The notes: a model not told the origin generated them from the letters alone. DNA of 18,425 bases from a virus (UHGV-2152132); one strand, 5' to 3'; counted from the first letter of the stretch, positions 3,619 to 18,425 are shown. Made by a program: numbers and translations.

Positions 3619-4848
3619 TTATGCGGCAATAACTTTGCATTTTTGAGACGAAACATAGTCACTCCACCATTGCATGAGAACCACCCGTTCAGTGAGATAC
3701 TCTGCACGATTGTAGGCTGCAATTATTTCATCTTTCTTCGAGTGGGCAAGGGCGGCTTCTAAGACATCAGTCCTAAACTTGCCAGACTCCTCAGCAGCCG
3801 TTCTAGCAATGGATCGCATACCGTGAGCTACAAGCTCACCTCCGAAACCCATACGGATTATGGCCGCATTAGCTGTTTGTTCATGCATGTGATTGAGTGG
3901 AGCTTTGATACTGGGGAACACCCACTCTCTATGCCCGCTGATGACTTTCATTAAATCCAAAACTCGCAAAGCTTCTTTGCTCAGTGGAACTTTGTGAGGC
4001 TTCTTCATTTTCATAAACTCCGCCGGGATGTTCCACATGCCAGTTTCAATATCAATATCTGACCATCTTGTGCGAACAGCTTCACCTGGGCGAACCCATG
4101 TGAGAAGTTGCCACTCAATCAGTAGCCTTGTTTCCAAACGGATAGAAGCATTGTTTAGAGCAACCAAGAAGCGAGGGAGTTCGGAAGGGGGTAATGCTGG
4201 CATATTCTGTTTTTTTGGCTTGCTGAACCGTTGCCCCAGGTTGTCTGCCGGGTTGAATTCTATGAGTTCTTCTGTTGCTGCATAGCGGAAAATTTCATTC
4301 AGGCGGGATATGATGCGGCGAAGTGTTTCAAGGACACCTCGTTTTTCTATGGGTTCTAAATGCTGTTTAAGCATTTTAGGGCGAATCTCCTTAATTGGGG
4401 TATCACCCAATGTGGAAAAGATATTTCTCTCTAGGCTTCGCCAGATGTCGTTAGCATGATCTTGGGAGATGCCTGACGTTTTGACTTTCTCATCAAGCCA
4501 CTTCTTGGCTACTGCTTGAAATGTATGTTCCGTGGCATCTTTCAGTGCATTGGCTTTTTGGTTGTTATGAACTTGGGGGTCTATACCATTTGTAAGCAAC
4601 GACAAGTATTCATCACGTAAAGCTCGTGCCTTCGCAAGTGTAAGGTGAGGATAGGTTCCTAAGCTCACCTTAGTTCGCTTTTTGGTCACAGGCACTGCAT
4701 ATCTGAAATACCAATTTTTCTTCCCTCCCTTCGCCAGGGGAGCGATTCGCAACAGCAAACCATCGCCGTCAAAAAGGTTAACCTCTTTTTCGGCAGGTTT
4801 GGTGCTTTTGATTTCAGTGTCAGTGAGCTTCTTAGCGATTTTGGCCAT
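3619..4848 (-). CDS. int: Tyrosine integrase, P4/CP4-57 (IntA/SlpA-like) family
   Basis: The ORF runs 3619-4929. I prefer the ATG at 4848 (MAKIAKKLTDTEIKSTKP...) because this family starts with the K-rich LTDxxIK N-terminus. Catalytic signature: WVRPGEA (R), HGMRSIARTAA (HxxR), AAYNRAEY (Y). It is adjacent to the ssrA 3' copy. Confidence 0.88.
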   Translation of the reverse strand: MAKIAKKLTDTEIKSTKPAEKEVNLFDGDGLLLRIAPLAKGGKKNWYFRYAVPVTKKRTKVSLGTYPHLTLAKARALRDEYLSLLTNGIDPQVHNNQKANALKDATEHTFQAVAKKWLDEKVKTSGISQDHANDIWRSLERNIFSTLGDTPIKEIRPKMLKQHLEPIEKRGVLETLRRIISRLNEIFRYAATEELIEFNPADNLGQRFSKPKKQNMPALPPSELPRFLVALNNASIRLETRLLIEWQLLTWVRPGEAVRTRWSDIDIETGMWNIPAEFMKMKKPHKVPLSKEALRVLDLMKVISGHREWVFPSIKAPLNHMHEQTANAAIIRMGFGGELVAHGMRSIARTAAEESGKFRTDVLEAALAHSKKDEIIAAYNRAEYLTERVVLMQWWSDYVSSQKCKVIAA

Positions 4849-4946
4849 GTTTGGGACCCTCGATTTTAGGACCCATCTTCGTGGGTCCCATTCAGGGTGC
4901 CATAACTCGTAGTTCTCAGCAATTCTCACTAGACTACAATAGACGT

Positions 4947-4978
4947 AAAAAAGCCCGCAGAGCTTGTGCTGTGCGGGC
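4947..4978 (-). terminator. Rho-independent terminator downstream of the displaced ssrA 3' copy
   Basis: Minus strand reads GCCCGCACAGCACAAGCTCTGCGGGC followed by TTTTTT (4952-4947). There is a 7-bp GC-rich stem (4953-4959 / 4972-4978) plus 3 inner pairs and a 4-nt loop. Confidence 0.6.
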
Positions 4979-5010
4979 TTAGTAGACTTTACTGAACTTC
5001 AGTACATCAA

Positions 5011-5059
5011 TATTTGGTGGAGCTGGCGGGAGTTGAACCCGCGTCCGAAATTCCTACAT
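5011..5059 (-). repeat. Displaced copy of the tmRNA 3' end (att core); direct repeat of 17362-17410
   Basis: tggtggagctggcgggagttgaacccgcgtccgaaattcctacat (5015-5059) is identical to 17366-17410. The 4 upstream bases (tatt) are also shared, giving 49 bp. Identity stops at 5060 (a) versus 17411 (c). Confidence 0.92.
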
Positions 5060-5144
5060 ACCATTTTTAGTATAGTAAAAATAGTAATTTATGTTTTAAA
5101 ACAAAGAATTAGTTTTTTGTTGTGTTTGCCCGTTTTATACATTT

Positions 5145-6404
5145 TTAACTCTCCGCCGCCAAATTGCCGCCATCAGGTAGATGCTCATGCTTCATCATTT
5201 GGTGGATAAGAACTTCTACTTTTCTGAAGGTCGTATTGTCATAGTACTCAACAAGTGATTCATCGAAATCCTCTATCCAACCTTTTGCTGGGCCATTTGT
5301 TTGATATCTGACGGCAGTTGGTGAGTGGAAGTTGGGAGTAGCCTTTAAAGTGCTAAACACAGCCCATGATACTGGGTTAGTCACTTTAAATATTCTCTTC
5401 AATTCAGGGCAGTACAACGTGTTTGGTACAGTTATTCGTTCCATTTTAGGGGGTAAGATTACATTAATACCGATGTCACTATCTTTTTGATTAAGTATTT
5501 TTGTCGAACGATACGATATTCCAGAAATATCCTTGTTGCTATCACTGCTAATCCATTGCATTAATAGGTTTGGAATAATGTATTCTTTGTGAAAATTTGC
5601 ATGTTCATGATCTTTTGTATAGTTACAGGCCAATACTAAAGGCCATGCGATTAGTTTTGAAACCTTATCATTAATCGGGTCTGAGAAATCACTATAATTT
5701 TCATTGTTGTATTCATCTATGCGTTCAGGCTCAAATGAAAATGAATGCTCACTTGGAGTGGAACGTAGTGCTGACGTTAGGTTGTATCCGAGGTCTAGTA
5801 TTCTAATTTGTGATGATTCGTCTTCAGTAATAAATGATGATATATACAGCTTATCGAAATCTGGTTTTCCCATCTCTTGCCAGCAAACAAATATTGATGT
5901 CCCAAGATATAGACATGGTAAACCTGAAACTGAGAAGCGTTGTGCGCTTACCAAATGTCTTTGACTAAAAGGAATGTGGAATAATTCTTCTCTATTTTTT
6001 AGTATGTTTTCACTTTTCCTAACCCGAAATAACGGAGTTCGTCTATTACAAAGTTTTGTTAACGGAACCGTCATTTGATAAATGTGGTTCTTCATTGCTG
6101 GTGAACCTATTATAGCTTGGTTGAAAGTATTATAGGCTTCTTTAATATTACCGTTAAGATAATGGGTTAACGTTTCAGATATTTTATTGGAGAATGTTGT
6201 GATTGAAATCGATCTTTTTTTTACCTCTTTTATTGTTTCGTTGTCTGGATAGTCCTTTCTTATTTTATCAATAGCTTCAAGATAACAATCAATCCTGTTT
6301 TTAAAGTTGGATACAATGTCGCCATTGGCCTTGAATGGGGGTTGAAGTAGTTCATATTGTAATAATGAATCTGATATTTCTTTCAGTTCTGAATATTTGC
6401 GCAT
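5145..6404 (-). CDS. RES-domain protein (419 aa), candidate NAD+-targeting toxin/abortive-infection effector; prophage cargo
   Basis: LFRVRKSE...ELFHIPFSQRHLVSAQRFSVSGLPCLYLGTSIFVCWQEMGKP matches the RES-domain core (Arg in xRFx, G.P.LYL, Glu). ISGISYRSTKILNQKDSDIGINVILPP supplies the conserved Ser and the following NxxxF/L strand. A ~130-aa helical N-terminal region and a ~90-aa C-terminal extension are unassigned. The ATG at 6404 is 10 nt after the int stop on the same strand. GC is lower than in the neighbouring phage genes (22/60 at 5221-5280). Confidence 0.62.
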   Translation of the reverse strand: MRKYSELKEISDSLLQYELLQPPFKANGDIVSNFKNRIDCYLEAIDKIRKDYPDNETIKEVKKRSISITTFSNKISETLTHYLNGNIKEAYNTFNQAIIGSPAMKNHIYQMTVPLTKLCNRRTPLFRVRKSENILKNREELFHIPFSQRHLVSAQRFSVSGLPCLYLGTSIFVCWQEMGKPDFDKLYISSFITEDESSQIRILDLGYNLTSALRSTPSEHSFSFEPERIDEYNNENYSDFSDPINDKVSKLIAWPLVLACNYTKDHEHANFHKEYIIPNLLMQWISSDSNKDISGISYRSTKILNQKDSDIGINVILPPKMERITVPNTLYCPELKRIFKVTNPVSWAVFSTLKATPNFHSPTAVRYQTNGPAKGWIEDFDESLVEYYDNTTFRKVEVLIHQMMKHEHLPDGGNLAAES

Positions 6405-6414
6405 GAGAATTATT

Positions 6415-7431
6415 TCAATTAAGGTTGATTAATGGATTCTTAGTCACAGCATCTTCGAGATGTTCTGGAGAAAAATGTGCATATATCATTGTCATTTTAA
6501 TATCAGTGTGACCCAAGATTTCTTTAAGTACCAGTATGTTTCCGCCGTTCATCATAAAGTGACTGGCGAATGTATGACGCAGAACGTGGGTACATTGACC
6601 TTCCGGCAGCTCAATACCGGCCCTCTTTACTGCTCGTTCAAAAGCTTTTCTGCATGGAGTGAATAATTTTCCTCTCTTTTTGGGGAGTTCGTCATACAGA
6701 TCCTGTGATATTGGCACTGTTCTGTTTTTCTTGCCCTTAGTCTTGGTGTAAGTGATGCGGTATTTTGACAACTGGTGTCCCTGTAGGTTTTCGGCTTCAC
6801 TCCATCGCGCGCCGGTGGCCAGGCAGATTTTTGTAATCAAAAGCAGGCTGGGGCTTTGAGAATCAGCGCAGGCATCCAGCAGACGTTTAATTTCTTCCGG
6901 GGTCAGGAACGCCAGTTCACCCTCAGCAATTTTAAATGTTGGCAGCCCGGCAAGTGGGTTGGGGGCTGACCAATGGCCCAGCTTTTTCAGTGTACCAAAT
7001 ACCGATGATAGGTTACGCTGTTCAAGGTTTACCGTGCGGGGCTTAACGGGCGACATAAGCGTGCCATCTTCATTTCGCACTTCACCTTTTAGCCGTGCTT
7101 CGCGGTATTTCGTAAAGTCACCGGCTGTCAGTTCTGAGGCGATGGGATCGCCTAGACCATTACAGATAATTTTAAGTTTCGCCATGAGGCGCTTGGGGTC
7201 TGCGAGTGTCTGACCGTACAGGGAATACCAAAGCTCAATTAATTCTGATAGGCGTCGCCGATCATCCTTTTCTCCTAACCACGGTTTTTTGTTCACTTCT
7301 TCCATTGTGAAGCTTTCAAACGCAATAGCTTCGCCTTTGGTAGCAAATTGCTTACGCACGCGCTTGCCATTGCGTCCATTGGGATAGCACTCACACAACC
7401 ATTTTCCGTTCGGCTGTTTTCTGATGGTCAT
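6415..7431 (-). CDS. int: Tyrosine integrase, P2/186 family
   Basis: 338 aa. MTIRKQPNGKWLCECYPNGRNGKRVRKQFATKGEA closely parallels my recollection of the 186 Int N-terminus. Catalytic motifs are ATGARWSEAE, HVLRHTFASHFMMNGGNILVLKEILGH and MTMIYAHF. Its ATG lies 1 nt after the cI stop. Confidence 0.92.
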   Translation of the reverse strand: MTIRKQPNGKWLCECYPNGRNGKRVRKQFATKGEAIAFESFTMEEVNKKPWLGEKDDRRRLSELIELWYSLYGQTLADPKRLMAKLKIICNGLGDPIASELTAGDFTKYREARLKGEVRNEDGTLMSPVKPRTVNLEQRNLSSVFGTLKKLGHWSAPNPLAGLPTFKIAEGELAFLTPEEIKRLLDACADSQSPSLLLITKICLATGARWSEAENLQGHQLSKYRITYTKTKGKKNRTVPISQDLYDELPKKRGKLFTPCRKAFERAVKRAGIELPEGQCTHVLRHTFASHFMMNGGNILVLKEILGHTDIKMTMIYAHFSPEHLEDAVTKNPLINLN

Positions 7432-7432
7432 T

Positions 7433-8065
7433 TCAAAGGCTCTTAATGATTTTCAGTGCGCGGCCTACTACCTCAATGTCATCCAGGCCGCACTCAAACG
7501 ATGAATCATCCTGATGCACTACTAATTTGTTTCCCGGGAGTCGAGTCAATTTAACGATGCTTTTTATCCCGTCGATATCGACTAACCACATACCATTTAC
7601 TGGTGGTGTTTGGTTGCGATCTATTAAATAAGAATCACCAGAAGTAGTCACCAGCAGTAGGTTGCTTGAGTCTGAGGGGAGTATGCTGCTATCAATGATT
7701 GCTTTTCCAGCATCGACCAATAAACCACCGTTGAGAGTCGCCTTGTCAATTTCAGGAGATACTAGTTCAGAAAGAGGTACAACCTTGCTGGAGTTCACGG
7801 AATTGATATTTTTTTTAGGTTCAATGTTTGGACCTGGCTCCCCCTGTCCGGTGGTTAGCCACAGTAAAGAAACTCCTGTTTCCAAGGCGCACTGAATCAC
7901 CCACTCTGCAGGAAAACTATCTCTTAAGTATCTGTTTGCCATGGTGCTTTTTGATGCGCCTAAGTGATCGCAAAGTTGCTGTCTGGACTTGAAATCATAG
8001 GCTGCCATTAGTCTATGGATAGCCTCTCTTCCCCCTGTATTCTCTCCAACCTTTACCTGTATCAT
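7433..8065 (-). CDS. cI: Immunity repressor, 186 CI-like
   Basis: 210 aa. The N-terminal HTH region (QQLCDHLGASKSTMANRYLR...CALETGVSLLWLTTGQGEP) resembles 186 CI as I recall it. It sits upstream of int and divergent from apl. AGGA lies 8-9 nt upstream of the ATG at 8065. Confidence 0.8.
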   Translation of the reverse strand: MIQVKVGENTGGREAIHRLMAAYDFKSRQQLCDHLGASKSTMANRYLRDSFPAEWVIQCALETGVSLLWLTTGQGEPGPNIEPKKNINSVNSSKVVPLSELVSPEIDKATLNGGLLVDAGKAIIDSSILPSDSSNLLLVTTSGDSYLIDRNQTPPVNGMWLVDIDGIKSIVKLTRLPGNKLVVHQDDSSFECGLDDIEVVGRALKIIKSL

Positions 8066-8077
8066 TTTTTAATCCTG

Positions 8078-8106
8078 TTGACGTATCAAATATTGGATCG
8101 TAGTAT
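8078..8106 (+). promoter_or_regulatory. pR-like early lytic promoter (drives apl-cII)
   Basis: TTGACG (8078-8083), exactly 17 nt of spacer, TAGTAT (8101-8106). One copy of the 17-bp repeat fills the spacer and the second copy sits at the predicted start site. Confidence 0.55.
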
Positions 8107-8129
8107 CTCGATGTATCAAATATTGAATC
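8083..8129. promoter_or_regulatory. Two 17-bp direct repeats GTATCAAATATTGRATC, 30 bp apart (candidate CI operators)
   Basis: Copy 1 is at 8083-8099 (GTATCAAATATTGGATC) and copy 2 at 8113-8129 (GTATCAAATATTGAATC), matching 16/17. Each contains a short dyad TCAA-N3-TTGR. They overlap the pR-like promoter. Confidence 0.5.
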
Positions 8130-8131
8130 AA
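8102..8131 (-). promoter_or_regulatory. Possible pL-like lysogenic promoter, face-to-face with pR
   Basis: On the minus strand: TTGATT (8131-8126), 18-nt spacer, GATACT (8107-8102), each 4/6. It would give transcripts convergent and overlapping with pR, as known for P2 Pe/Pc and 186 pR/pL. This call is weak. Confidence 0.3.
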
Positions 8132-8132
8132 G

Positions 8133-8160
8133 TAAAACGAGATAAAACGACGTAAACCAA
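8133..8160 (+). promoter_or_regulatory. Three 10-bp-phased direct repeats TAAAACGA / TAAAACGA / TAAACCAA (candidate Apl/Cox boxes)
   Basis: Copies at 8133-8140, 8143-8150 and 8153-8160, between the pR start and the apl RBS. They resemble the P2 Cox-box style TTAAAGNCA, which is arranged as helically phased direct repeats. Confidence 0.4.
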
Positions 8161-8184
8161 ACCTTAATCGGGAGATACTGCACT

Positions 8185-8427
8185 ATGAGCACTGATATTT
8201 CAATTCGTGTACCAAAAGAGATGGCTACGCCTGCAGAGTTCGCGGAATGGGAAGGTATCTCCCGCGGCTCCGTGTATCAAAAAATTCACCATGGTCAGCT
8301 TGCTAAATACATGGTCAAGAAAGAAAAAAACAAAGGCCGCGTAAGCCTGCGTTATTTAATGTACAAAACCGATCAGGTCCGTGAATCCCTCGGTCATTCC
8401 AACTTCCGCGTCATTGTTGGTAAGTAA
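8185..8427 (+). CDS. apl: Apl/Cox-like excisionase and transcriptional regulator
   Basis: 80 aa. It is the first gene of the rightward operon, divergent from cI. The C-terminal ESLGHSNFRVIVGK resembles the 186 Apl C-terminus (LGHSRFQLVIGA as I recall). GGGAG lies 9 nt upstream of the ATG. Confidence 0.7.
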   Translation: MSTDISIRVPKEMATPAEFAEWEGISRGSVYQKIHHGQLAKYMVKKEKNKGRVSLRYLMYKTDQVRESLGHSNFRVIVGK

Positions 8428-8459
8428 GTTCAATTATGAGAACTTTCTAAGGGGGTAGC

Positions 8460-8855
8460 ATGTTTGATTATAAGATTTCCAAACACCCGCATTTTGATGA
8501 AGCCTGTAGAGCTTTTGCACTTCGTCACAATATGGCGAAGCTGGCAGAACGTGCAGGAATGAATGTCCAGACTCTGCGAAACAAACTCAACCCAGATCAA
8601 CCGCATCAGCTCAATGCGCCAGATATCTGGCTACTTACCGATCTGACGGAAGATTCAACGCTGGTAGACGGTTTTCTGGCACAGATTCACTGCCTGCCAT
8701 GTGTACCGATTAATGAGGTGGCAAAAGAGAAACTGCCACATTACGTCATGAGTGCAACCGCAGAGATCGGGCGTGTTGCTGCAGGTGCGGTATCCGTTCC
8801 GACGTTCCTCGTTGCCGCTTCTCCCAAACCAACGTTTAAGAAAATGCAGAGGTAA
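8460..8855 (+). pseudogene. cII: cII (186-type) truncated at about codon 112 and fused to foreign sequence
   Basis: Residues 1-112 (MFDYKISKHPHFDEACRAFALRHNMAKLAERAGMNVQTLRNKLNP...GAVS) track 186 CII as I recall it (169 aa). The remaining 19 aa (VPTFLVAASPKPTFKKMQR) read through antisense tail-fibre sequence and the invertase crossover site. Confidence 0.7.
8819..8844. promoter_or_regulatory. Hin/Gin/Cin/Pin-type 26-bp crossover site (invertase-proximal, orphan)
   Basis: TTCTCCCAAACC AA CGTTTAAGAAAA compares with hixL TTCTTGAAAACC AA GGTTTTTGATAA. There are two imperfect inverted 12-bp half-sites around an AA core, 55 bp upstream of the invertase ATG. No second inverted copy was found in the window. 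Confidence 0.7.
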
Positions 8856-8899
8856 CAGCTAACTGGCATCATCTCCGGTTTTTATTCAGGGGGATGATC

Positions 8900-9466
8900 A
8901 TGCTTATTGGCTATGTACGCGTGTCAACAAATGACCAGAACACCGATTTGCAACGTAATGCACTGAACTGCGCGGGATGTGAGCAGATTTTTGAGGACAA
9001 AATCAGTGGCACTAAGTCCGACAGACCGGGGCTGAAAAAACTACTCAGGACACTATCGGCAGGAGACACGCTGGTTGTCTGGAAGCTGGACAGGTTGGGG
9101 CGCAGTATGCGGCATCTTGTTACGCTGATAGAAGAGTTGCGCCAGCGTGGTGTGAATTTCAGAAGCCTGACTGACAGTATTGATACCAGTACCCCAATGG
9201 GCCGTTTCTTTTTTCATGTCATGGGTGCCCTGGCTGAAATGGAACGCGAACTGATAGTTGAACGTACCAGGGCAGGGCTGGCTGCAGCTCGTGCCAAAGG
9301 CAGAGTAGGTGGACGCCGTCCTAAGTTGACCACCGAACAGTGGGCACAGATTGGGCGTTTACTCGAGGCCGGAGAATCAAGACAGCGTATTGCACTGATT
9401 TTTGATGTAGGCGTTTCTACCATTTATAGAAAATTTCCGGCAAATAAGATCAATGAATCCCCCTGA
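8900..9466 (+). CDS. Site-specific DNA invertase, Hin/Gin/Cin/Pin family (small serine recombinase)
   Basis: MLIGYVRVSTNDQNTDLQRNAL...DTLVVWKLDRLGRS...MGRFFFHVMGALAEMERELIVERT...GVSTIYRKFP is near-collinear with Pin/Hin. I prefer the start at 8900 (family N-terminus, GGGGG 6-7 nt upstream). The track ORF starts at 8894. Confidence 0.92.
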   Translation: MLIGYVRVSTNDQNTDLQRNALNCAGCEQIFEDKISGTKSDRPGLKKLLRTLSAGDTLVVWKLDRLGRSMRHLVTLIEELRQRGVNFRSLTDSIDTSTPMGRFFFHVMGALAEMERELIVERTRAGLAAARAKGRVGGRRPKLTTEQWAQIGRLLEAGESRQRIALIFDVGVSTIYRKFPANKINESP

Positions 9467-9514
9467 ATCAGCATTATGTTGATTATCCCTGCAAGCAGAC
9501 AAATACCGTTATTT

Positions 9515-9572
9515 TGTGTGAATAACGACACAACTGCGCTTAGCTGTTTGTCAGGCACAATCACTTCAACAT
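9515..9572 (+). promoter_or_regulatory. PF-like Ogr-dependent late promoter
   Basis: TGT-N12-ACA dyad at 9515-9532 (TGTgtgaataacgacACA), the activator-binding element of P2-family late promoters, which is centred near -55. A candidate -10 CAACAT at 9567-9572 puts the start about 55 bp from the dyad centre and about 30 nt upstream of the FI ATG. Confidence 0.5.
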
Positions 9573-9608
9573 AGGGCGAAGCCTAATCCAATCAGGAGGT
9601 TCGCCACT

Positions 9609-10781
9609 ATGGCTCAGGATTACCACCACGGGGTGCGCGTTGTTGAAGTCAACGAAGGCACCCGATCTATTACCACGGTGAGCACCGCCATCGTGGGTAT
9701 GGTCTGCACGGGCGATGATGCCGATGCAAAAATGTTTCCTCTTAATAAACCCGTGCTGATCACTGATGTGCTGACTGCCAGCGGTAAAGCGGGTGAGTCA
9801 GGTACTCTGGCCCGTTCGCTGGATGCCATCGCTGACCAGGCAAAACCCGTGACCATTGTTGTGCGTGTGCCGCAGGGTGAAACGGAAGACGAAACCACGA
9901 CCAATATCATCGGCGCAGTGACTGCTGAAGGTAAAAAAACAGGTATGAAAGCCCTGTTATCTGCCCAGTCACAGCTCGGCGTTAAACCGCGCATTCTCGG
10001 CGTGCCAGGCCACGACACCAAGGCGGTAGCTACTGAGTTGCTGAGCGTGGCGCAAAGCCTGCGTGGATTTGCTTACCTGTCAGCGTATGGCTGCAAGACA
10101 GTGCAGGAGGCGATCACTTACCGCGAAAACTTCAGCCAGCGCGAAGGGATGCTGATCTGGCCTGACTTTACTGGCTGGGACACGGTGCTGAATGCCGAAG
10201 CAACGGCATATGCCACCGCCCGTGCGCTTGGTCTGCGCGCCAAAATTGACGAGCAGACCGGATGGCACAAAAGCCTGTCCAACGTGGGCGTGAACGGTGT
10301 CACCGGAATTTCTGCAGATGTGTTCTGGGATCTGCAGGACCCGGCAACCGATGCAGGTCTGCTGAACCAGAACGACGTCACCACGCTTGTGCGTAAAGAC
10401 GGTTTCCGCTTCTGGGGTTCCCGCTGCCTGAGTGATGACCCGCTCTTTGCCTTCGAAAACTACACCCGCACGGCGCAGGTGCTGATGGACACGATGGCAG
10501 AAGCACACATGTGGGCGGTGGATAAACCGCTTAACCCGTCGCTGGCCCGCGACATTATCGAAGGTATCCGCGCCAAAATGCGCAGCCTGGTCAGTCAGGG
10601 CTATCTCATTGGTGGTGATTGCTGGCTGGATGAGTCGGTGAACGACAAAGACACGCTGAAAGCCGGAAAACTCACCATCGACTACGACTACACGCCAGTG
10701 CCGCCACTTGAAAACCTGATGCTGCGTCAGCGCATCACCGATCAGTACCTGGTGAATTTCGCCAGCCAGGTCAGCGCGTAA
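9609..10781 (+). CDS. FI: Contractile tail sheath protein (P2 gpFI)
   Basis: 390 aa. [54 protein letters not shown] matches the P2 FI N-terminus as recalled. AGGAGG RBS. Confidence 0.93.
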
Positions 10782-10790
10782 GGGGACAAC

Positions 10791-11306
10791 ATGGCTTTAC
10801 CACGCAAATTAAAACACCTGAACCTGTTTAACGACGGGAACAACTGGCAGGGGATCGTTGAATCGCTGACGCTGCCGAAATTTACCCGCAAATATGAGAA
10901 GTATCGCGGCGGCGGAATGCCGGGTGCGGTGGATGTGGATCTGGGGCTTGATGACAGTGCGCTGGACACAGAATTTTCCATTGGTGGTACTGAATTGCTG
11001 CTGTTTAAACAGATGGGTAAAGCCACGGTGGATGGCATCCAGCTGCGCTTTACCGGCTCTATTCAGCGTGACGATACCGGGGAAGTGCAGGCCGTGGAGC
11101 TTGTCGTGCGTGGACGTCACAAAGAAGTGGATTCCGGCGAGTGGAAGACGGGCGAAAGCAACACCACCAAAGTGACCAGTACCAACAGCTACGCGAAGCT
11201 GACCATCAATGGTGAGGTGCTCTATGAAGTGGACCTTATCAACATGGTGGAAATTGTGGACGGTGTGGACCTGATGGAAGCGCACCGCAACGCCCTCGGC
11301 CTCTGA
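10791..11306 (+). CDS. FII: Tail tube protein (P2 gpFII)
   Basis: 171 aa. MALPRKLKHLNLFNDG...LPKFTRKYEKYRGGGMPGAVDVDLGLDD parallels P2 FII. AAGGGG RBS. Confidence 0.92.
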   Translation: MALPRKLKHLNLFNDGNNWQGIVESLTLPKFTRKYEKYRGGGMPGAVDVDLGLDDSALDTEFSIGGTELLLFKQMGKATVDGIQLRFTGSIQRDDTGEVQAVELVVRGRHKEVDSGEWKTGESNTTKVTSTNSYAKLTINGEVLYEVDLINMVEIVDGVDLMEAHRNALGL

Positions 11307-11360
11307 TATATCTGAACGGCGCGGGATACCGCGCCAGAACCCAATTGACAGGACAGCAAA

Positions 11361-11663
11361 ATGAGCGATAAGCAGACTGAAAAGACCATTCAACTGGATA
11401 CCCCCATCAAGCGCGGTAAAACAGAAATCACCGAAATTGTGCTGCGTAAACCGCAGTCCGGTGCGCTGCGCGGTACACGCCTGCAGGCCATTATGGATAT
11501 GGATGTAAACGCGATGATGACCGTGATCCCCCGCATCTCCAGTCCGGCACTGACTGCACAGGAAATTGCAGAGATGGACCCGGCAGATCTCACTGCCATG
11601 TCGGTTGAGGTTGTCACTTTTTTGTTGAAGAAGTCGGTGCTTGCCGGTTTACCGACAGCCTGA
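11361..11663 (+). CDS. E: Tail assembly chaperone gpE (zero-frame product)
   Basis: 100 aa, positioned between FII and T. Contains the conserved slippery T TTT TTG. Confidence 0.85.
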   Translation: MSDKQTEKTIQLDTPIKRGKTEITEIVLRKPQSGALRGTRLQAIMDMDVNAMMTVIPRISSPALTAQEIAEMDPADLTAMSVEVVTFLLKKSVLAGLPTA

Positions 11664-11797
11664 CGGTTGACGATCTGGTGGCAGATATCGCCACCATTTT
11701 TCACTGGCCGCCATCCGTTACTGACGTTATGCCGCTGACCGAAGTGCTGGAATGGCGGTATAAAGCGATTCAGAGAAGCGGGGCCAACGATGAGTGA
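11361..11797 (+). CDS. E+E': Tail assembly chaperone gpE+E' (programmed -1 frameshift product)
   Basis: A -1 slip at 11618-11624 continues as VEEVGACRFTDSLTVDDLVADIATIFHWPPSVTDVMPLTEVLEWRYKAIQRSGANDE, ending at TGA 11795-11797. ADIATIFHWPP...RSG matches the P2 E' tail as recalled. The total is about 145 aa. Confidence 0.8.
11618..11624 (+). other. Slippery heptamer T TTT TTG for the E/E+E' -1 frameshift
   Basis: I checked the frame by hand. 11618 is the third position of codon T86, then TTT (F87) and TTG (L88). The -1 frame stays open for 57 codons. Confidence 0.8.
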
Positions 11798-14700
11798 TAA
11801 CAACCTGCGTCTGCAGGTCATTCTTAATGCGGTTGACAAGCTCACCCGCCCATTTCGATCTGCGCAGGCCAGTTCAAGAGAACTGGCTGCTGCTGTCAAA
11901 AAATCCCGCGATGCAATAAAGCAGCTTGATCAGGCCGGGAGCAGTCTGGACAGCTTCCGAAAGCTGCAGGCAGAAAATCAGAAATTAGGCGACAGGCTGA
12001 ACTATGCCCGCCAGCGTGCAAATTTGCTCAGTCAGGAACTGGGAGCGATGGGGCCGCCTTCGCAACGTCAGGTTGTTGCTCTGGGCCGTCAACGGCTGGC
12101 TGTTCAGCGCCTGGAAGAACGCCAGAAAAAGCTGCAGCAGCAGACGGCGCTTGTGCGTGCTGAACTGTACCGGGCGGGAATTTCTGCGAAAGACGATGCG
12201 GGAGCAACTGCCCGTTTAGCCCGTGAAACATCACGTTATAACCAGGAACTTTCGAAACAGGAGGCGCGGCTGAAGCGACTGGGGGAAGCTCAGCGCAGGA
12301 TGAATGCAGCGCGTGCCAGTTATGCCCGTTCGCTGGAGGTGCGTGATCGTATTGCAGGTGCCGGAGCCACCACCACGGCTGCAGGGCTGGCAATGGGTGC
12401 GCCAGTGATGGCGGCAGTAAAAAGCTATACCAGCATGGAAGATGCCATGAAAGGTGTGGCAAAGCAGGTCAATGGTCTGCGTGACGATAATGGCAACCGC
12501 ACTGCACGTTTTTATGAAATGCAGGATGCCATCAAGGCTGCCAGCGAACAGTTGCCGATGGAAAACGGTGCGGTGGACTTCGCTGCACTGGTTGAAGGTG
12601 GTGCGCGCATGAACGTCGCAAACCCTGACGACAGCTGGGAAGATCAGAAACGTGACCTGCTGGCCTTCGCCAGTACGGCAGCAAAGGCGGCAACAGCCTT
12701 TGAGCTGCCAGCGGATGAACTGTCAGAAAGTCTGGGGAAAATCGCCCAGCTCTACAAAATCCCCACCCGCAATATTGAACAGCTCGGTGATGCGCTGAAC
12801 TATCTGGATGATAACGCCATGTCGAAAGGGGCAGACATCATTGATGTGATGCAACGTCTGGGCGGTGTGGCTGACCGTCTGGATTATCGTAAAGCGGCGG
12901 CGCTGGGTTCCACCTTCCTGACACTGGGCGCTGCGCCAGAGGTTGCAGCCAGTGCAGCAAACGCGATGGTGCGTGAATTGTCCATTGCCACCATGCAAAG
13001 CAAGAGTTTCTTTGAAGGGATGAATCTGCTGAAACTCAATCCTGAAGTGATTGAAAAGCAGATGACGAAGGATGCGATGGGAACCATCCAGCGCGTGCTG
13101 GAGAAGGTAAACGCGCTGCCGCAGGACAAGCGCCTGTCTGCCATGACTATGTTGTTTGGTAAAGAGTTTGGCGATGACGCGGCGAAACTGGCAAACAACC
13201 TGCCGGAACTGCAGCGTCAGTTAAAACTGACAGCGGGCAATGATGCGCTTGGCTCCATGCAAAAAGAATCCGACATTAACAAGGATTCACTTTCTGCGCA
13301 GTGGTTGCTGGTCAAAACCGGAGCGCAGAACACCTTCAGCAGCCTGGGCGAAACGCTGCGCCAGCCGCTGATGGATATTCTGTACACGGTGAAAAGCGTC
13401 ACGGGGGCGTTGCGTCGCTGGGTGGAAGCTAACCCGGAACTGACAGGCACACTGATGAAAGCATCGGCTGTTGTGGCTGCGGTTACCGTCGGCCTCGGCA
13501 CCTTAGCGGTGGCGCTGGCTGCAGTGCTGGGGCCGCTGGCAGTGATCCGTCTGGGATTCTCTGTGTTGGGTATCAAAACGTTATCTTCCGTTACGGCAGC
13601 AGTAACTCGAACCAGCAGCGCGTTGTCCTGGCTGGCTGGCGCACCACTGGCACTGCTGCGACGCGGGCTTGCTTCATCGGGCAACGCCGCAGGTTTACTT
13701 ACTGCGCCGTTGTCGTCTTTGCGCCGCACGGCATCACTGACGGGAAATGTCCTGAAAACTGTAGCAGGTGCGCCGGTTGCACTTTTGCGGTCTGGATTAT
13801 CCGGTTTACGTGCTGTTGCTGTGATGTTTATGAATCCTCTGGCGGTACTGCGCGGTGGACTGGCCGCCGCAGGCACGGTGCTGCGAGTACTGGCATCTGG
13901 TCCACTGGCGATGCTGCGCGTTGCCCTGTATGCCATATCTGGTCTGTTAGGTGCTCTGCTCAGTCCGATAGGTCTTGTGGTTACTGCACTGGCGGGCGTG
14001 GCGCTGGTTGTCTGGAAATACTGGCAACCCATCACCGCATTTCTCGGTGGCGTGGTGGAAGGATTCAAAGCGGCGGCAGGTCCCATCAGTGCAGCGTTCG
14101 AACCGCTTAAGCCCGTGTTCCAGTGGATTGGCGACAAAGTGCAGGCGCTGTGGGGCTGGTTTACTGATCTGCTGACGCCCGTTAAGTCGACCTCTGCCGA
14201 ACTGCAGAGCGCAGCGGCAATGGGGCGGCGATTCGGGGAGGCACTGGCGGAAGGGCTGAATATGGTCATGCATCCGCTGGACTCCCTGAAATCCGGCGTT
14301 TCCTGGTTGCTGGAGAAGCTCGGCATTGTCAGTAAAGAGGCCGCAAAGGCAAAACTGCCGGAAAGCGTGACGCGTCAGCAACCTGCGACGGTGAATGCAG
14401 ACGGTAAAGTGATGATGCCATCGGGTGGTTTTCCATCATGGGGATATGGCTTTGCGGGGATGTATGACAGCGGCGGGTATATCCCGCGCGGGCAGTTTGG
14501 CATCGTCGGTGAAAACGGGCCGGAAATTGTTAACGGCCCGGCAAATGTGACCAGCCGGAGAAATACAGCTGCACTGGCTGCCGTTGTTGCCGGAATGATG
14601 GGCGTTGCTGCCGCGCCAGCAGAGCTTCCACCGTTGCACCCCTTGGCACTTCCCGCGAAAGGTGGAGAAGCAATTGTGAGTCGCGCAGCCACTGTGCCAC

Positions 14701-14867
14701 TCGTTCAACGGATTGAGGCACCGACGCAGATCATCATTCAGACGCAGCCAGGACAAAGTGCGCAGGATATTGCGCGGGAGGTGGCACGCCAGCTTGATGA
14801 ACGTGAACGCAGGCTGAAGGCAAAAGCCAGGAGTAACTACAGCGATCAGGGGGGATACGACGCATGA
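11790..14867 (+). CDS. T: Tail tape measure protein (P2 gpT-like)
   Basis: 1025 aa. It has a coiled-coil-like N-terminus, a central hydrophobic repeat block and a Gly-rich C-terminus. It lies directly after E/E', and its ATG overlaps the E' stop (gATGAGTGA). Confidence 0.9.
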   Translation: MSDNNLRLQVILNAVDKLTRPFRSAQASSRELAAAVKKSRDAIKQLDQAGSSLDSFRKLQAENQKLGDRLNYARQRANLLSQELGAMGPPSQRQVVALGRQRLAVQRLEERQKKLQQQTALVRAELYRAGISAKDDAGATARLARETSRYNQELSKQEARLKRLGEAQRRMNAARASYARSLEVRDRIAGAGATTTAAGLAMGAPVMAAVKSYTSMEDAMKGVAKQVNGLRDDNGNRTARFYEMQDAIKAASEQLPMENGAVDFAALVEGGARMNVANPDDSWEDQKRDLLAFASTAAKAATAFELPADELSESLGKIAQLYKIPTRNIEQLGDALNYLDDNAMSKGADIIDVMQRLGGVADRLDYRKAAALGSTFLTLGAAPEVAASAANAMVRELSIATMQSKSFFEGMNLLKLNPEVIEKQMTKDAMGTIQRVLEKVNALPQDKRLSAMTMLFGKEFGDDAAKLANNLPELQRQLKLTAGNDALGSMQKESDINKDSLSAQWLLVKTGAQNTFSSLGETLRQPLMDILYTVKSVTGALRRWVEANPELTGTLMKASAVVAAVTVGLGTLAVALAAVLGPLAVIRLGFSVLGIKTLSSVTAAVTRTSSALSWLAGAPLALLRRGLASSGNAAGLLTAPLSSLRRTASLTGNVLKTVAGAPVALLRSGLSGLRAVAVMFMNPLAVLRGGLAAAGTVLRVLASGPLAMLRVALYAISGLLGALLSPIGLVVTALAGVALVVWKYWQPITAFLGGVVEGFKAAAGPISAAFEPLKPVFQWIGDKVQALWGWFTDLLTPVKSTSAELQSAAAMGRRFGEALAEGLNMVMHPLDSLKSGVSWLLEKLGIVSKEAAKAKLPESVTRQQPATVNADGKVMMPSGGFPSWGYGFAGMYDSGGYIPRGQFGIVGENGPEIVNGPANVTSRRNTAALAAVVAGMMGVAAAPAELPPLHPLALPAKGGEAIVSRAATVPLVQRIEAPTQIIIQTQPGQSAQDIAREVARQLDERERRLKAKARSNYSDQGGYDA

Positions 14868-15349
14868 TGATGGTGCTGGGATTGTACGTGTTTATGCTGC
14901 GCACCGTTCCGTATCAGGAACTGCAGTATCAACGCAGCTGGCGACATGCGGCAAACAGTCGGGTAAACCGACGTCCGTCCACGCAGTTTCTGGGACCGGA
15001 AAACGACATGCTGACGCTTTCCGGTGTTCTTATGCCGGAAATAACAGGCGGCAGGCTGTCGTTGCTGGCACTGGAGCAGATGGCAGAACAGGGGAAAGCA
15101 TGGCCCCTGATTGAAGGCAGCGGCACGATTTACGGCATGTATGTGATTGAGGGACTGAATCAGACTAAAACGGAGTTTTTCCGCGACGGTATGCCGCGCC
15201 GGATTGAGTTCACCCTGTCGCTCAAACGAGTGGATGAATCCCTGTCCGATATGTTCGGTGATCTCAGTGCGCAACTGAATAATCTGCAGGACACGGCAAC
15301 GTCTGCCTTAAGCGATATCAGTAAAACGGTGGGAGGGCTGCTGTCGTGA
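14864..15349 (+). CDS. U: Tail protein gpU
   Basis: 161 aa. MMMVLGLYVFMLRTVPYQ...LSGVLMPEITGG...AWPLIEGSGTIYGMYVIEGL...RRIEFTLSLKRVDE parallels P2 gpU. ATGA overlap with the T stop. Confidence 0.9.
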   Translation: MMMVLGLYVFMLRTVPYQELQYQRSWRHAANSRVNRRPSTQFLGPENDMLTLSGVLMPEITGGRLSLLALEQMAEQGKAWPLIEGSGTIYGMYVIEGLNQTKTEFFRDGMPRRIEFTLSLKRVDESLSDMFGDLSAQLNNLQDTATSALSDISKTVGGLLS

Positions 15350-16446
15350 ATTTCAGCTCTGAACTGCTTAACAAAGGCAACAAAACTCCCGCATTCAGCA
15401 TCAGTATTGAGGGCAGGGATATCACCACTGTGCTGGATAACCGCCTGATGAGTTTGACGCTGACGGATAACCGGGGCTTTGAAGCGGACCAGCTTGATCT
15501 GGAGCTGGATGACGCTGACGGAAAAATCGTGCTGCCGCGCCGTGGTGCGGTTATTACGCTGGCGCTGGGCTGGAAGGGGCAGCCGCTTTTCCCGAAAGGG
15601 GCATTCACAGTGGACGAGATTGAACACACTGGCGCACCGGACCGCCTGACTATCCGGGCGCGAAGTGCTGATTTTCGGGAAACGCTGAATACCCGCCGTG
15701 AAAAATCGTGGCATAAGACCACCGTCGGGGAAGTGGTGAAGGAAATAGCCGCGCGGCACAAGCTGAAGATGGCCCTGGGTAAAGACCTGTCGGATAAGCC
15801 CGTGGAGCATATAGACCAGACTAATGAGAGTGACGGCAGTTTTCTGATGCGGCTGGCGCGACAGTACGGTGCCATCGCGTCGGTGAAAAATGGCAATCTG
15901 TTATTCATCCGGCAGGGGCAGGGCAAAAGCGCCACTGGTAAACCTCTGCCAGTGATCACTATCACACGCAAGGACGGCGACAGTCACCGATTTACCCTGG
16001 CAGATCGCGGAGCCTACACGGGCGTAATTGCCAGCTGGTTGCATACCCGCGAACCTGCGAAGAAAGAAAGCACCACGGTGAAGCGTAAGCGCAGAACTAA
16101 GAAGCAGAAGAAAGAGCCGGAAGCGAAGCAGGGCGATTACCTGGTGGGTACGGATGAAAACGTGCTGGTACTTAATCGCACTTATGCCAACCGGAGCAAC
16201 GCTGAACGGGCAGCGAAAATGCAGTGGGAACGCCTGCAACGCGGCGTTGCGTCATTCTCGCTACAACTGGCGGAAGGGCGGGCAGATCTTTACACGGAAA
16301 TGCCAGTGAAAGTTAGTGGCTTTAAACAACCGATAGATGATGCGGAATGGACCATTACGACTCTGACTCATACCGTCAGCCCGGATAATGGTTTTACGAC
16401 CAGTATTGAACTCGAAGTGAAGATTGATGATCTTGAAATGGAATAA
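15346..16446 (+). CDS. D: Tail protein gpD (late control D family)
   Basis: 366 aa with a GTG start overlapping the U stop (GTGA). GGGAGGG RBS at 15331-15337. Contains a Phage_GPD-like segment (SDGSFLMRLARQYGAIASVKNGNLLF). Confidence 0.88.
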   Translation: MNFSSELLNKGNKTPAFSISIEGRDITTVLDNRLMSLTLTDNRGFEADQLDLELDDADGKIVLPRRGAVITLALGWKGQPLFPKGAFTVDEIEHTGAPDRLTIRARSADFRETLNTRREKSWHKTTVGEVVKEIAARHKLKMALGKDLSDKPVEHIDQTNESDGSFLMRLARQYGAIASVKNGNLLFIRQGQGKSATGKPLPVITITRKDGDSHRFTLADRGAYTGVIASWLHTREPAKKESTTVKRKRRTKKQKKEPEAKQGDYLVGTDENVLVLNRTYANRSNAERAAKMQWERLQRGVASFSLQLAEGRADLYTEMPVKVSGFKQPIDDAEWTITTLTHTVSPDNGFTTSIELEVKIDDLEME

Positions 16447-16514
16447 AGTGTTCTCAATATTGATATTTTGTGTATCATTACAATGATTCTGATAGCAAAG
16501 GTAGGGATCTGGAT

Positions 16515-16733
16515 ATGATGAATTGTCCAAAGTGTGGTCATGCGGCACACACAAGGAGCAGTTTTCAAGTAACTGAAAGCACCAAAGAGCGTTACTGCCA
16601 GTGCCAAAATATTAACTGCGGGAGCACTTTTGTTACCCATGAAACAGTGGTCCGGTTTATTGTGACACCCGCACTGATTGCTACTGCTCCTCCACATCCA
16701 TTGCCAGGTGGTCAGGGGCATATGAATTTTTGA
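16515..16733 (+). CDS. ogr: Ogr zinc-finger late-gene transcriptional activator
   Basis: Starting at the ATG at 16515 gives 72 aa with Cys4, Cys7, Cys30 and Cys35, exactly the P2 Ogr spacing (MMNCPKCGHAAHTRSS...KERYCQCQNINCGSTF). The track ORF (16470) adds 15 unsupported residues. A possible -10 TACAAT lies at 16479-16484. Confidence 0.9.
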   Translation: MMNCPKCGHAAHTRSSFQVTESTKERYCQCQNINCGSTFVTHETVVRFIVTPALIATAPPHPLPGGQGHMNF

Positions 16734-16740
16734 GAAAGAG

Positions 16741-16764
16741 AACCTGCTACGGCAGGTTTTTATT
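16741..16764 (+). terminator. Rho-independent terminator after ogr, overlapping the stop of the convergent gene
   Basis: AACCTGC tacg GCAGGTT followed by TTTTATT. The 7-bp stem is at 16741-16747 / 16752-16758. Confidence 0.6.
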
Positions 16765-17242
16765 CATCTGGGATCTCACCCGTTTCAAGAAAATGTATAA
16801 AGCCAGGCTCATCTATGATGATTGTGCCTTTCATCCTGGCTGCCGATACTTTTGATGGGCCTGCATTGTAACCGCAACAGAGCATCTGAAGGCTTTGGGT
16901 TACAGAGGTTCTTACCGTTAATCCTTGTTCATTCGCCTTATCAACCAATCTTTCTTTATCTGCTTTCTTAAATCCGGTGAAACACACATCGAATGTATTT
17001 TTTTTCGGACCAGACTGCTTAGTGAGATGTGAGTAGTTTTCGGGGAGGAATGACGCGCATTCCTGAATGGCTTGTTCTGGTGAATCGTACTGTTTAAGAA
17101 TGCGGTCTTTTCGGAAGGTTTTTATTCGATCGGTGTTCTTACAAATGCCCTGTATATGATTTTCGCTATAACTGATGCTCTGTATTGAGTGAACTCCGAT
17201 ACGACCATTTGCATTGATGTAAACAAAGTGAAGTTCTTCCAT
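16760..17242 (-). CDS. WYL-domain plus BRCT-domain protein (160 aa), prophage cargo
   Basis: The N-terminal HFVYINANGRIGVHSIQSISYSENHIQGICKNTDRIKTFRKDRI fits the WYL-domain pattern (F.Y...G....R.i......yi.GyC......R.FR.DRI). The C-terminal FDVCFTGFKKADKERLVDKANEQGLTVRTSVTQSLQMLCCGYNAGPSKVSAARMKGTIIIDEPGFIHFL fits BRCT as in the LigA C-terminus (F..TG......R........G..V..SVS..t..Lv.G...GSK...A...G..ii.E..F). AGAGG lies 7 nt upstream of the ATG. No HTH is evident. Confidence 0.6.
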   Translation of the reverse strand: MEELHFVYINANGRIGVHSIQSISYSENHIQGICKNTDRIKTFRKDRILKQYDSPEQAIQECASFLPENYSHLTKQSGPKKNTFDVCFTGFKKADKERLVDKANEQGLTVRTSVTQSLQMLCCGYNAGPSKVSAARMKGTIIIDEPGFIHFLETGEIPDE

Positions 17243-17270
17243 GTGAAACCTCTTTGCATGATTTCAAGAG

Positions 17271-17305
17271 GGCGACAGGCAAGATAGACGCAAAAGTCTG
17301 TCGCC
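17271..17305. repeat. 8-bp perfect inverted repeat GGCGACAG-N19-CTGTCGCC upstream of the WYL-BRCT gene
   Basis: Arms at 17271-17278 and 17298-17305, 29-63 nt upstream of the ATG at 17242. It could be an operator or a 5'-UTR hairpin. Confidence 0.45.
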
Positions 17306-17325
17306 ATTTTGCCGCCACTACCAAA

Positions 17326-17355
17326 GAAAAAGGGGCTACGCTTTCACGTAACCCC
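17326..17355 (-). terminator. Rho-independent terminator of the intact ssrA (supplied by the prophage side of the junction)
   Basis: Minus strand reads GGGGTTACG tgaaag CGTAGCCCC followed by TTTTTC. It is a 9-bp stem with one G-U pair, starting 11 nt after the tmRNA 3' end. Confidence 0.7.
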
Positions 17356-17365
17356 TTGTTTTATT

Positions 17366-17728
17366 TGGTGGAGCTGGCGGGAGTTGAACCCGCGTCCGAA
17401 ATTCCTACATCCTCGGTACTACATGCTTAGTCAGTCTTTATATTCGCTTGCCAGCTGCGGACGGACACGCCACTAACAAACTAGCCTGATTAAGTTTTAA
17501 CGCTTCAACCCCAGGCAGGGCTTCCACGCGATCTCTTTTGGGTTTGACCTCTCTTGATCCCCGTCCTAAGAGCGGAGGCTAGGGAGAGAGGGCTCTAAGC
17601 AGGTTATTAAGCTGCTAAAGCGTAGTTTTCGTCGTTTGCGACTATTTTTTGCGGCTTTTTACGAGGCCAACCGCCCCTCGGCATGCACCTTGGGTTTCGC
17701 AAATCCCGTCGAATCCAGAATCAGCCCC
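17366..17728 (-). ncRNA. ssrA: tmRNA (SsrA), complete, 363 nt
   Basis: The reverse complement starts GGGGCTGATTCTGGATTCGACGGGATTTGCGAAACCC and ends GGTTCAACTCCCGCCAGCTCCACCA. It contains the tag reading frame. The tRNA-like acceptor and T-arm are at the 3' end. Confidence 0.97.
17607..17639 (-). other. tmRNA tag-peptide reading frame ANDENYALAA plus stop
   Basis: Minus strand reads GCA AAC GAC GAA AAC TAC GCT TTA GCA GCT TAA. Confidence 0.95.
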
Positions 17729-17942: not shown

Positions 17943-18425
17943 TTAACGGTGGGCGTTTTTCATGATACGTGCTTTATCCACCTGCCATTCGCGCTCTTTG
18001 ATATCTGAACGTTTATCGTGCTGTTTCTTACCTTTGGCGACGCCGATTTTCACTTTGCACCAGGCATTTTTCCAGTACAGGGAGAGCGCCACTACGGTAT
18101 AGCCTTCTCGATTGACGCGACCGTACAATGAGTCCAGTTCGCGCTGGTTGAGAAGTAACTTGCGGGTACGGGTAGGATCGCACACCACATGCGTGGAGGC
18201 CACGGCCATTGGCGTGATGTTAGCGCCAAACAGAAATGCCTCTCCGTCACGCAGAAGGACGTAGCTGTCGCTGATATTGGCTTTTCCTGCGCGCAGGGAT
18301 TTAACTTCCCAGCCTTGCAGGGCAAGTCCCGCTTCGAACTCTTCTTCGATAAAGTATTCGTGACGGGCGCGCTTGTTAAGCGCGATGGTCGCTGAACCAG
18401 GTTTATGTGCTTTTTTCTTCGTCAT
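17943..18425 (-). CDS. smpB: SsrA-binding protein SmpB
   Basis: 160 aa, [48 protein letters not shown]...; matches E. coli SmpB as I recall it. The ATG is at the window edge (18423-18425), and it has the canonical position upstream of ssrA. Confidence 0.97.

Follow-up and report, generated by a model that had tools for sequence, protein, structure and literature searches.

Stand-alone aRES proteins defend against phage by turning nicotinamide adenine dinucleotide (NAD+) into ADP-ribose-1''-phosphate (ADPR-1''-phosphate; bioRxiv 10.64898/2026.01.28.702374). The interval between the integrase gene (int) and the attachment site (att) of P2-like prophages is already reported as a minor defence hotspot holding 3% of systems (Nucleic Acids Res 2026, PMC13586616). 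A fusion of WYL and BRCT domains was listed, without a function, by Makarova et al. 2014, and no study of a WYL-BRCT member was found in the literature. Here we analyse a stretch of 18,425 nucleotides (nt) from UHGV-2152132 (the window), in which a Fels-2/186-like (Peduoviridae) prophage that has recently undergone a deletion sits at the 3' end of Escherichia coli ssrA. An earlier note on this DNA had drawn attention to two genes at opposite prophage ends, encoding a RES-like protein of 419 amino acids (aa) and a WYL-BRCT protein of 160 aa, which would be neighbours across the phage attachment site (attP) in the excised circle. That geometric observation is confirmed, and its interpretation is borne out in part. 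We consider it likely that two separate, swappable cargo slots flank attP and that their occupants are unrelated to each other, in this case a stand-alone RES effector and a WYL-BRCT protein expressed in lysogeny.

Results

Integration in ssrA and gene order across attP

The prophage remnant is bounded by an exact 49-nt direct repeat (5011-5059 and 17362-17410), in keeping with the identical att repeats described earlier, and both flanks diverge at once outside it. ARAGORN places the transfer-messenger RNA (tmRNA) at 17366-17728 on the minus strand, with the tag ANDENYALAA; the repeat therefore includes the final 45 nt of ssrA. The features of the two prophage ends are:

4948-4981, minus strand: native ssrA terminator hairpin, displaced by integration, just beyond attL (sequence read and terminator scan)
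5011-5059: attL core, a displaced 3' ssrA fragment (exact 49-nt repeat)
5145-6404, minus strand: int-att cargo, stand-alone RES-fold protein of 419 aa with an N-terminal helical domain (phrog_7835)
6415-7431, minus strand: P2/186-type integrase, int (Pfam Int_N and Phage_integrase)
7433-8065, minus strand: 186-type CI repressor, cI (Pfam Phage_CI_repr and Phage_CI_C)
16515-16733, plus strand: ogr late-gene activator (Pfam Ogr_Delta; 72-aa matches in relatives)
16741-16758: hairpin separating the convergent ogr and BRCT genes (terminator scan)
16760-17242, minus strand: ogr-att occupant, WYL-BRCT protein of 160 aa (phrog_2561; Pfam BRCT E 1e-3)
17297-17322, minus strand: conserved GTGGCGGCAAAATGGCGRCAG segment between the terminator and the BRCT gene start (alignment of nine diverged loci)
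17330-17357, minus strand: phage-supplied ssrA terminator on the phage side of the core (12-bp stem and T run)
17362-17410: attR core, the functional ssrA 3' end (exact 49-nt repeat)
17366-17728, minus strand: ssrA (tmRNA; ARAGORN)

Joining position 5060 to 17361 in the Campbell manner gives the order cI, int, 419-aa gene, attP, 160-aa gene and convergent ogr. Segments 13947-17410 and 5011-5173 of the window each align to phage Cartapus, where they overlap on the 49-nt core of that phage. The annotated order in Cartapus is D, ogr, BRCT gene, RES gene, int, cI, and an IMG/VR contig (L082) holds RES, att, BRCT, ogr and D in one contiguous run. Both match the minus-strand order predicted in the earlier note; together with the att geometry, they bear out its claim that integration splits two genes that are adjacent and co-oriented in the circle. 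The series D, ogr, BRCT gene (here frameshifted), 309-aa gene, int and cI is also contiguous in E. coli 503440, which probably represents a tandem lysogen.

Between the att core and the start of the BRCT gene lie about 120 nt, which hold the terminator and a conserved arm-like segment. In the alignment of nine diverged loci the phage-supplied terminator is conserved, its stem pairing being kept through substitutions (G-U to A-U; G-C to A-U, on both sides). The segment GTGGCGGCAAAATGGCGRCAG is kept even where the BRCT genes share only 71-74% identity; it is probably an integrase arm site of attP. A second hairpin upstream of the BRCT gene was also considered and was rejected, as it is not kept in diverged loci.

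Both intervals flanking att exchange their content

The int-att interval was sampled in 80 IMG/VR loci fetched by integrase (90-97% identical), and the att core was located in 54. Among these 54 loci, all with an integrase at least 90% identical, the interval is empty (134 bp) in 15, and the occupied intervals hold eight unrelated protein families in total. Occupants include the RES-like family, a 363-aa membrane protein, a 513-aa protein, a 222-aa protein, a protein pair, a 585-aa protein and an insertion sequence, with interval sizes of 134, ~800, ~1165, ~1340, ~1675, 1753, 2010, 2356 and 2798 bp. The 585-aa occupant is the PADLOC dCTPase, a dCTP-deaminase defence gene (2e-146). Cargo open reading frames (ORFs) detected here are co-stranded with int in all intervals but the dCTPase one. 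The protein pair of one locus (L173) consists of a 261-aa dCTP deaminase/dUTPase-like protein with a membrane tail and a 255-aa ThyX-like protein, both named by eye and without a PADLOC match.

The ogr-att interval is likewise either empty (118-121 bp) or occupied, by the BRCT gene (~636 bp), a 237-aa membrane protein, a 257-aa protein accompanied by a 62-aa ORF, or a 127-aa protein; the sizes observed were ~120, 523, 636, 1020 and 1319 bp. The 257-aa occupant is a retron-type reverse transcriptase (RT; 1e-17), and the cargo ORFs detected run in the ssrA direction in all cases but the RT. In the D-gene sample used for this slot, many of the 98-99% identical D genes come from phages in which no ssrA att core could be seen downstream of ogr, and such loci are therefore uninformative on the ogr-att slot.

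Compared across related ssrA-integrating phages, both intervals are variable cargo sites, swapping content among close relatives and each holding defence genes. The variable moron/defence hotspot at attP proposed in the earlier note is right, and is largely known already.

The two slots are filled independently

The RES allele of the window occurs in one of 5426 complete E. coli genomes, that of PEC1011 (99.9% nt identity), where the ogr-att slot holds the 237-aa gene in place of the BRCT gene. Conversely, an identical BRCT arm is also found beside a non-RES gene. Among 28 integrase-sampled IMG/VR contigs of at least 30 kb, two carry both genes, eight RES alone, four BRCT alone and 14 neither (odds ratio 0.88, Fisher p = 1), in a table that is small and assumes a BRCT locus list complete to ~59% identity.

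In the phage collection, RES-like tblastn matches were found in Cartapus, RE2010, SE479_1PHIH2, SopEPhi and Bacillus SPbeta, and BRCT matches in Cartapus, 500465-1, Yersinia MLG42 and in Vibrio, Burkholderia, Mannheimia and Pseudomonas phages. Cartapus is the only phage common to both lists; the Mannheimia, Vibrio and Burkholderia P2-like phage records with BRCT homologues gave no RES-like tblastn match. Homologues of the two genes hence co-occur at chance, and each is found without the other. The sensor-plus-effector pairing suggested in the earlier note is not supported.

A stand-alone RES-fold protein related to aRES

The 419-aa protein has no Pfam match at E <= 0.01 and none in PADLOC or NCBIfam. 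The Pfam RES profile (PF08808) reaches E 0.049 and 14.1 bits, under the gathering cut-off of 23.2, and weak RES matches were obtained for 19 of 30 relatives (best E 0.0045). Fold comparison supports a RES/ADP-ribosyltransferase (ART)-like fold, the nearest folds being toxin-antitoxin toxins such as MbcT, NatT and ParT. The AlphaFold2 (AF2) model has a predicted local distance difference test (pLDDT) score of 76.9, and the protein carries an additional N-terminal helical domain (~110 residues) and C-terminal helices. The RES label given earlier is supported by the fold, whereas the Pfam score for this protein is sub-threshold. A profile search of the family against PDB sequences for solved relatives found nothing.

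Within the RES-like family R156, Y166, E177 and T301 are invariant, and most members have S300; each of these motifs has an aligned counterpart in aRES. Using hhalign, the RES domains of the family and of aRES from E. coli UC5 align over 169 columns (E 5e-4, 23% identity), with LFRxR, R-x9-Y-x10-E, GxS(Y/F)(R/K)ST and NVVL in common, and the N-terminal domains are not aligned. PF18870 is absent from the 22 Pfam families matched by any of 30 RES-like members (E <= 1), the aRES authors having used hhsearch, and six IMG genomes carrying the RES-like family are not in the aRES list (Table S2). Because the RES domain aligns while the N-terminus, PF18870 and the aRES list do not match, we regard the 419-aa protein as a member of a related but distinct stand-alone RES family. 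The gene is most likely a stand-alone NAD+-targeting defence gene, as predicted from this relationship to aRES.

A single ORF of at least 60 aa fills 14 of the 15 RES-occupied int-att intervals; in the 15th, one RES-like gene is present as two fragments. No second gene family, hence no adjacent antitoxin gene, was found in these 15 intervals. Across 100 loci with int and a RES-like gene, the integrases are 90-100% identical (median 92.9%) and the RES-like genes 36-100% (median 39.5%), an extreme contrast in divergence between neighbouring genes.

A WYL-BRCT protein associated with lysogeny

Relatives of the 160-aa protein match BRCT in 34 of 38 cases and WYL in seven of 38 (best 1.5e-5). Among longer relatives, WYL (PF13280) is matched in 20 of 50 (best 1.5e-7), and the 160-aa protein itself has no WYL match. 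The AF2 model (pLDDT 91.4) contains a five-strand beta domain (3-52), consistent with WYL, and a BRCT domain (85-154) resembling the RFC1/LigA class. Hence the BRCT half of the earlier label is secured by both profile and fold, while WYL goes undetected in this protein and is seen only in relatives. T89, G90 and K131 are invariant in the BRCT-protein family and match the phosphate-binding triad of BRCT domains. A search for relatives in which the module is fused to effector domains yielded many longer proteins, in which Pfam finds BRCT and WYL alone.

In Mannheimia PHL101 and Vibrio PV94, cI is followed by a BRCT gene with the same orientation; in a Burkholderia phage the BRCT gene lies two genes past the repressor, converging on D. 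Given this placement in distant phages, the BRCT gene is a long-standing partner of the lysogeny module. In the LF82 lysogen, the Cartapus 'putative exonuclease protein', the label that the Cartapus record gives to the BRCT gene, is expressed 15-fold over prophage background versus 5-fold for cI. A promoter pattern scan found no consensus promoter between the terminator and the BRCT gene start, and a dedicated BRCT promoter was rejected on that ground. The position of the gene suggests that in the lysogen it is probably transcribed by read-through from ssrA.

Remaining prophage genes and the deletion junction

The other features of the window are:

3619-4929, minus strand: P4-type tyrosine integrase of a neighbouring island at the left, outside the prophage
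8080-8129: two 20-nt direct repeats, 30 bp apart, in the cI/apl switch region (repeat family D3)
8185-8427, plus strand: Apl/Cox-like excisionase-repressor (phrog_6912, phrog_575)
8460-8855, plus strand: CII gene, truncated by the deletion (Pfam Phage_CP76 positions 1-111 of 146; junction mapping)
8819-8844, plus strand: cix/hix-like invertase crossover site, intact (pattern match, one mismatch)
8894-9466, plus strand: Hin/Cin-type DNA invertase (Pfam Resolvase and HTH_7; phrog_125)
9609-16446, plus strand: tail genes (sheath, tube, E, tape measure, U, D)
17943-18425, minus strand: smpB (E. coli-type ssrA locus)

The repeats at 8080-8129 are probably repressor operators. The earlier note held the two att-flanking genes to be the only non-P2-core genes of the element; both are indeed att-flanking cargo, but the invertase gene had been overlooked.

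Homology to intact cII stops at 8794 and right-arm homology restarts at 8814, leaving 19 nt unmatched between them. The intact cix/hix-like site, TTCTCCCAAACCAACGTTTAAGAAAA, lies just upstream of the invertase gene and 5 nt past the right-arm restart. A deletion mediated by the invertase was considered; the endpoint is at most 25 nt from the cix-like site but off the crossover, and with 19 junction nt unmatched this origin is unsupported. The left and right arms each resemble a different phage, and recombination between phages or tandem prophages is a possible origin of the deletion.

At the nt level, both the RES gene and the right arm share 99.9% identity with their counterparts in two intact prophages, and int and cI match intact prophages at the protein level. 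The near-identity of the RES gene and right arm indicates that the deletion is recent, and also means that the intact ORFs are uninformative on selection. The whole remnant was not found among the 5426 complete E. coli genomes, where the best match covers 81%. In L249 and ~40 further loci, whose D genes are 97-99% identical to that of the window, no ssrA att core could be seen downstream of ogr; phages that integrate elsewhere therefore apparently share the tail module. A further remnant (L027/L094) measures ~6 kb att-to-att, with both cores visible in L027, and a RES-like gene is present only in some such remnants.

Discussion

In this phage lineage, one slot lies between int and attP and the other between attP and the convergent ogr. 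Both are adjacent in the free phage and mostly co-oriented with cI and int; integration carries them to opposite prophage ends and places the ogr-side gene directly downstream of ssrA and the phage-supplied terminator. The slot occupants assort independently and do not constitute a two-gene system. On its own, the RES-fold protein most likely acts as an abortive-infection effector that destroys NAD+ upon an infection trigger, parallel to aRES, with the N-terminal helical domain as a putative sensor or autoinhibitor. The WYL-BRCT protein, which has no catalytic domain, most likely binds a nucleic-acid ligand or a 5'-phosphate DNA end. Its production would fall in lysogeny, driven by the cI operon in distant relatives and probably by ssrA read-through in this prophage.

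Other readings of the two genes differ in how well they account for these data. That RES and WYL-BRCT form one effector-sensor system straddling attP, uncoupled by integration, draws on their adjacency and shared orientation across attP in Cartapus and L082, on WYL being a known ligand-sensing domain of defence systems, and on the presence of both genes in two of the 28 contigs. We regard it as highly improbable: the RES allele stands unchanged with another partner gene in PEC1011, the BRCT arm is unchanged beside a non-RES gene, co-occurrence is at chance level (odds ratio 0.88), the BRCT family extends to Mannheimia, Vibrio and Burkholderia phages and the RES family to SPbeta with Cartapus alone in the overlap, and a terminator and attP arm separate the genes. 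The WYL-BRCT gene could instead be an old, semi-conserved gene of the Peduoviridae lysogeny module, next to attP only by virtue of where attP lies, and not hotspot cargo. Its synteny with cI and its convergence with D in Mannheimia, Vibrio and Burkholderia phages (34-39% identity), its standing as by far the commonest ogr-att occupant and its 2380 cluster representatives at E <= 1e-3 make this a possibility to be taken seriously, if the less probable one, as close relatives have an empty (~120 bp) ogr-att interval or another gene there, and the BRCT gene occurs in just 171 of 5426 complete E. coli genomes.

For the RES-fold protein, a self-regulated toxin of the RES-Xre kind, serving prophage stabilisation (addiction) or persistence and not antiphage defence, would fit the nearest folds, which are toxin-antitoxin toxins such as MbcT, NatT and ParT, and the location of the gene adjoining int at the prophage edge. 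We think this unlikely. There is neither an antitoxin gene nor room for one in the int-att slot, the RES-like proteins are extremely diverse beside a conserved integrase, a known defence gene is among the occupants of the same slot, and phage defence by stand-alone RES proteins has already been demonstrated (bioRxiv 10.64898/2026.01.28.702374). A related proposal of the earlier note was that the end genes were kept after the deletion owing to selection for the cargo. At least seven further IMG/VR ssrA remnants (L027, L029, L081, L108, L113, L139 and L140) keep BRCT-ogr-D together with cI-int, in line with such selection. Against this, the deletion is recent, as judged by the 99.9% identity of the RES gene and right arm to intact prophages and the protein-level match of int and cI; by definition, any internal deletion spares both ends; without its right end the prophage would leave ssrA damaged; the remnants were retrieved by searching with the retained genes themselves; and four of the seven (L108, L113, L139 and L140) have no RES-like match in the sequence covered. 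Selection for cargo is accordingly given little weight here, and cannot be inferred from the retained end genes.

Several points weigh against the two-slot reading as we have drawn it. The NADase activity, toxicity and phage defence of the RES-fold protein are predictions, the protein is absent from PADLOC, and the Cartapus RES gene is not on the list of genes that the LF82 lysogen expresses 5-fold over background. We infer the read-through from ssrA into the BRCT gene, and the function suggested for WYL-BRCT is guesswork, the extra regions of its longer relatives having no recognisable effector domain. The co-occurrence table is small, as noted, and Cartapus is a prophage of LF82; the gene order of its record might come from prophage coordinates permuted in silico. 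Two slots with unrelated occupants nevertheless remain our preferred reading. More tentatively, and with rather less confidence than in the slots themselves, the hypervariable RES-fold family of ~400 aa (phrog_7835), which is fixed in the int-att slot of P2-like phages that integrate in ssrA and also includes YopC of SPbeta, might be a single-gene antiphage system, so far unrecognised, that targets NAD+ and has a new sensor domain, and the widespread WYL-BRCT protein a lysogeny-expressed Peduoviridae factor that binds DNA ends or a ligand, its expression captured from the ssrA promoter only after integration.

Cargo islands can thus straddle attP and, in lysogens, be seen as two unrelated prophage ends. 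Because such islands appear split, surveys of integrated prophages that look for hotspots or rely on guilt by association should put the two ends back together; a neighbouring position across attP is by itself no evidence of a functional link. The analysis flags two candidates of predicted function: a stand-alone RES family that PADLOC does not recognise, and a WYL-BRCT protein that is conserved in P2-like phages of several genera and expressed in lysogens.

Comparison with known systems

The WYL-BRCT protein shares with the WYL sensors of defence systems (BrxR/CapW/PafBC class) a predicted WYL-like five-strand barrel with a TFRxDRI motif, and with RFC1/LigA-class BRCT domains a conserved TG...K phosphate pocket. 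Unlike the WYL sensors, this stand-alone protein of 160 aa from P2-like phages lacks both a winged helix-turn-helix (wHTH) DNA-binding domain and an enzymatic domain. The RES-fold protein differs from the RES-Xre toxins (MbcT, NatT, ParT, Res) in having no Xre or MbcA-type antitoxin gene and in being 2-3 times longer, with extra N- and C-terminal helices. It is closer to aRES (bioRxiv 10.64898/2026.01.28.702374), in which a single gene without an operon partner likewise encodes 300-600 aa with an N-terminal accessory and a RES domain, in Enterobacteria; in contrast to aRES, the family described here is prophage-borne at int-att, has another N-terminus and a predicted activity.

As for the slots, the int-att hotspot reported previously (PMC13586616) is similar in that its content varies among close relatives and includes known defence systems; the mirror slot between att and ogr is not named in the sections of that survey available to us. 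The survey counts only systems recognised by DefenseFinder or PADLOC, and PADLOC has no match to the RES-like family. The classical P2 cargo hotspots (tin/old between A and Q; Z/fun in the tail genes) also place interchangeable defence cargo at fixed core-gene positions. The position here is a different one, and the island extends across the attachment site, so that a lysogen carries it in two parts.

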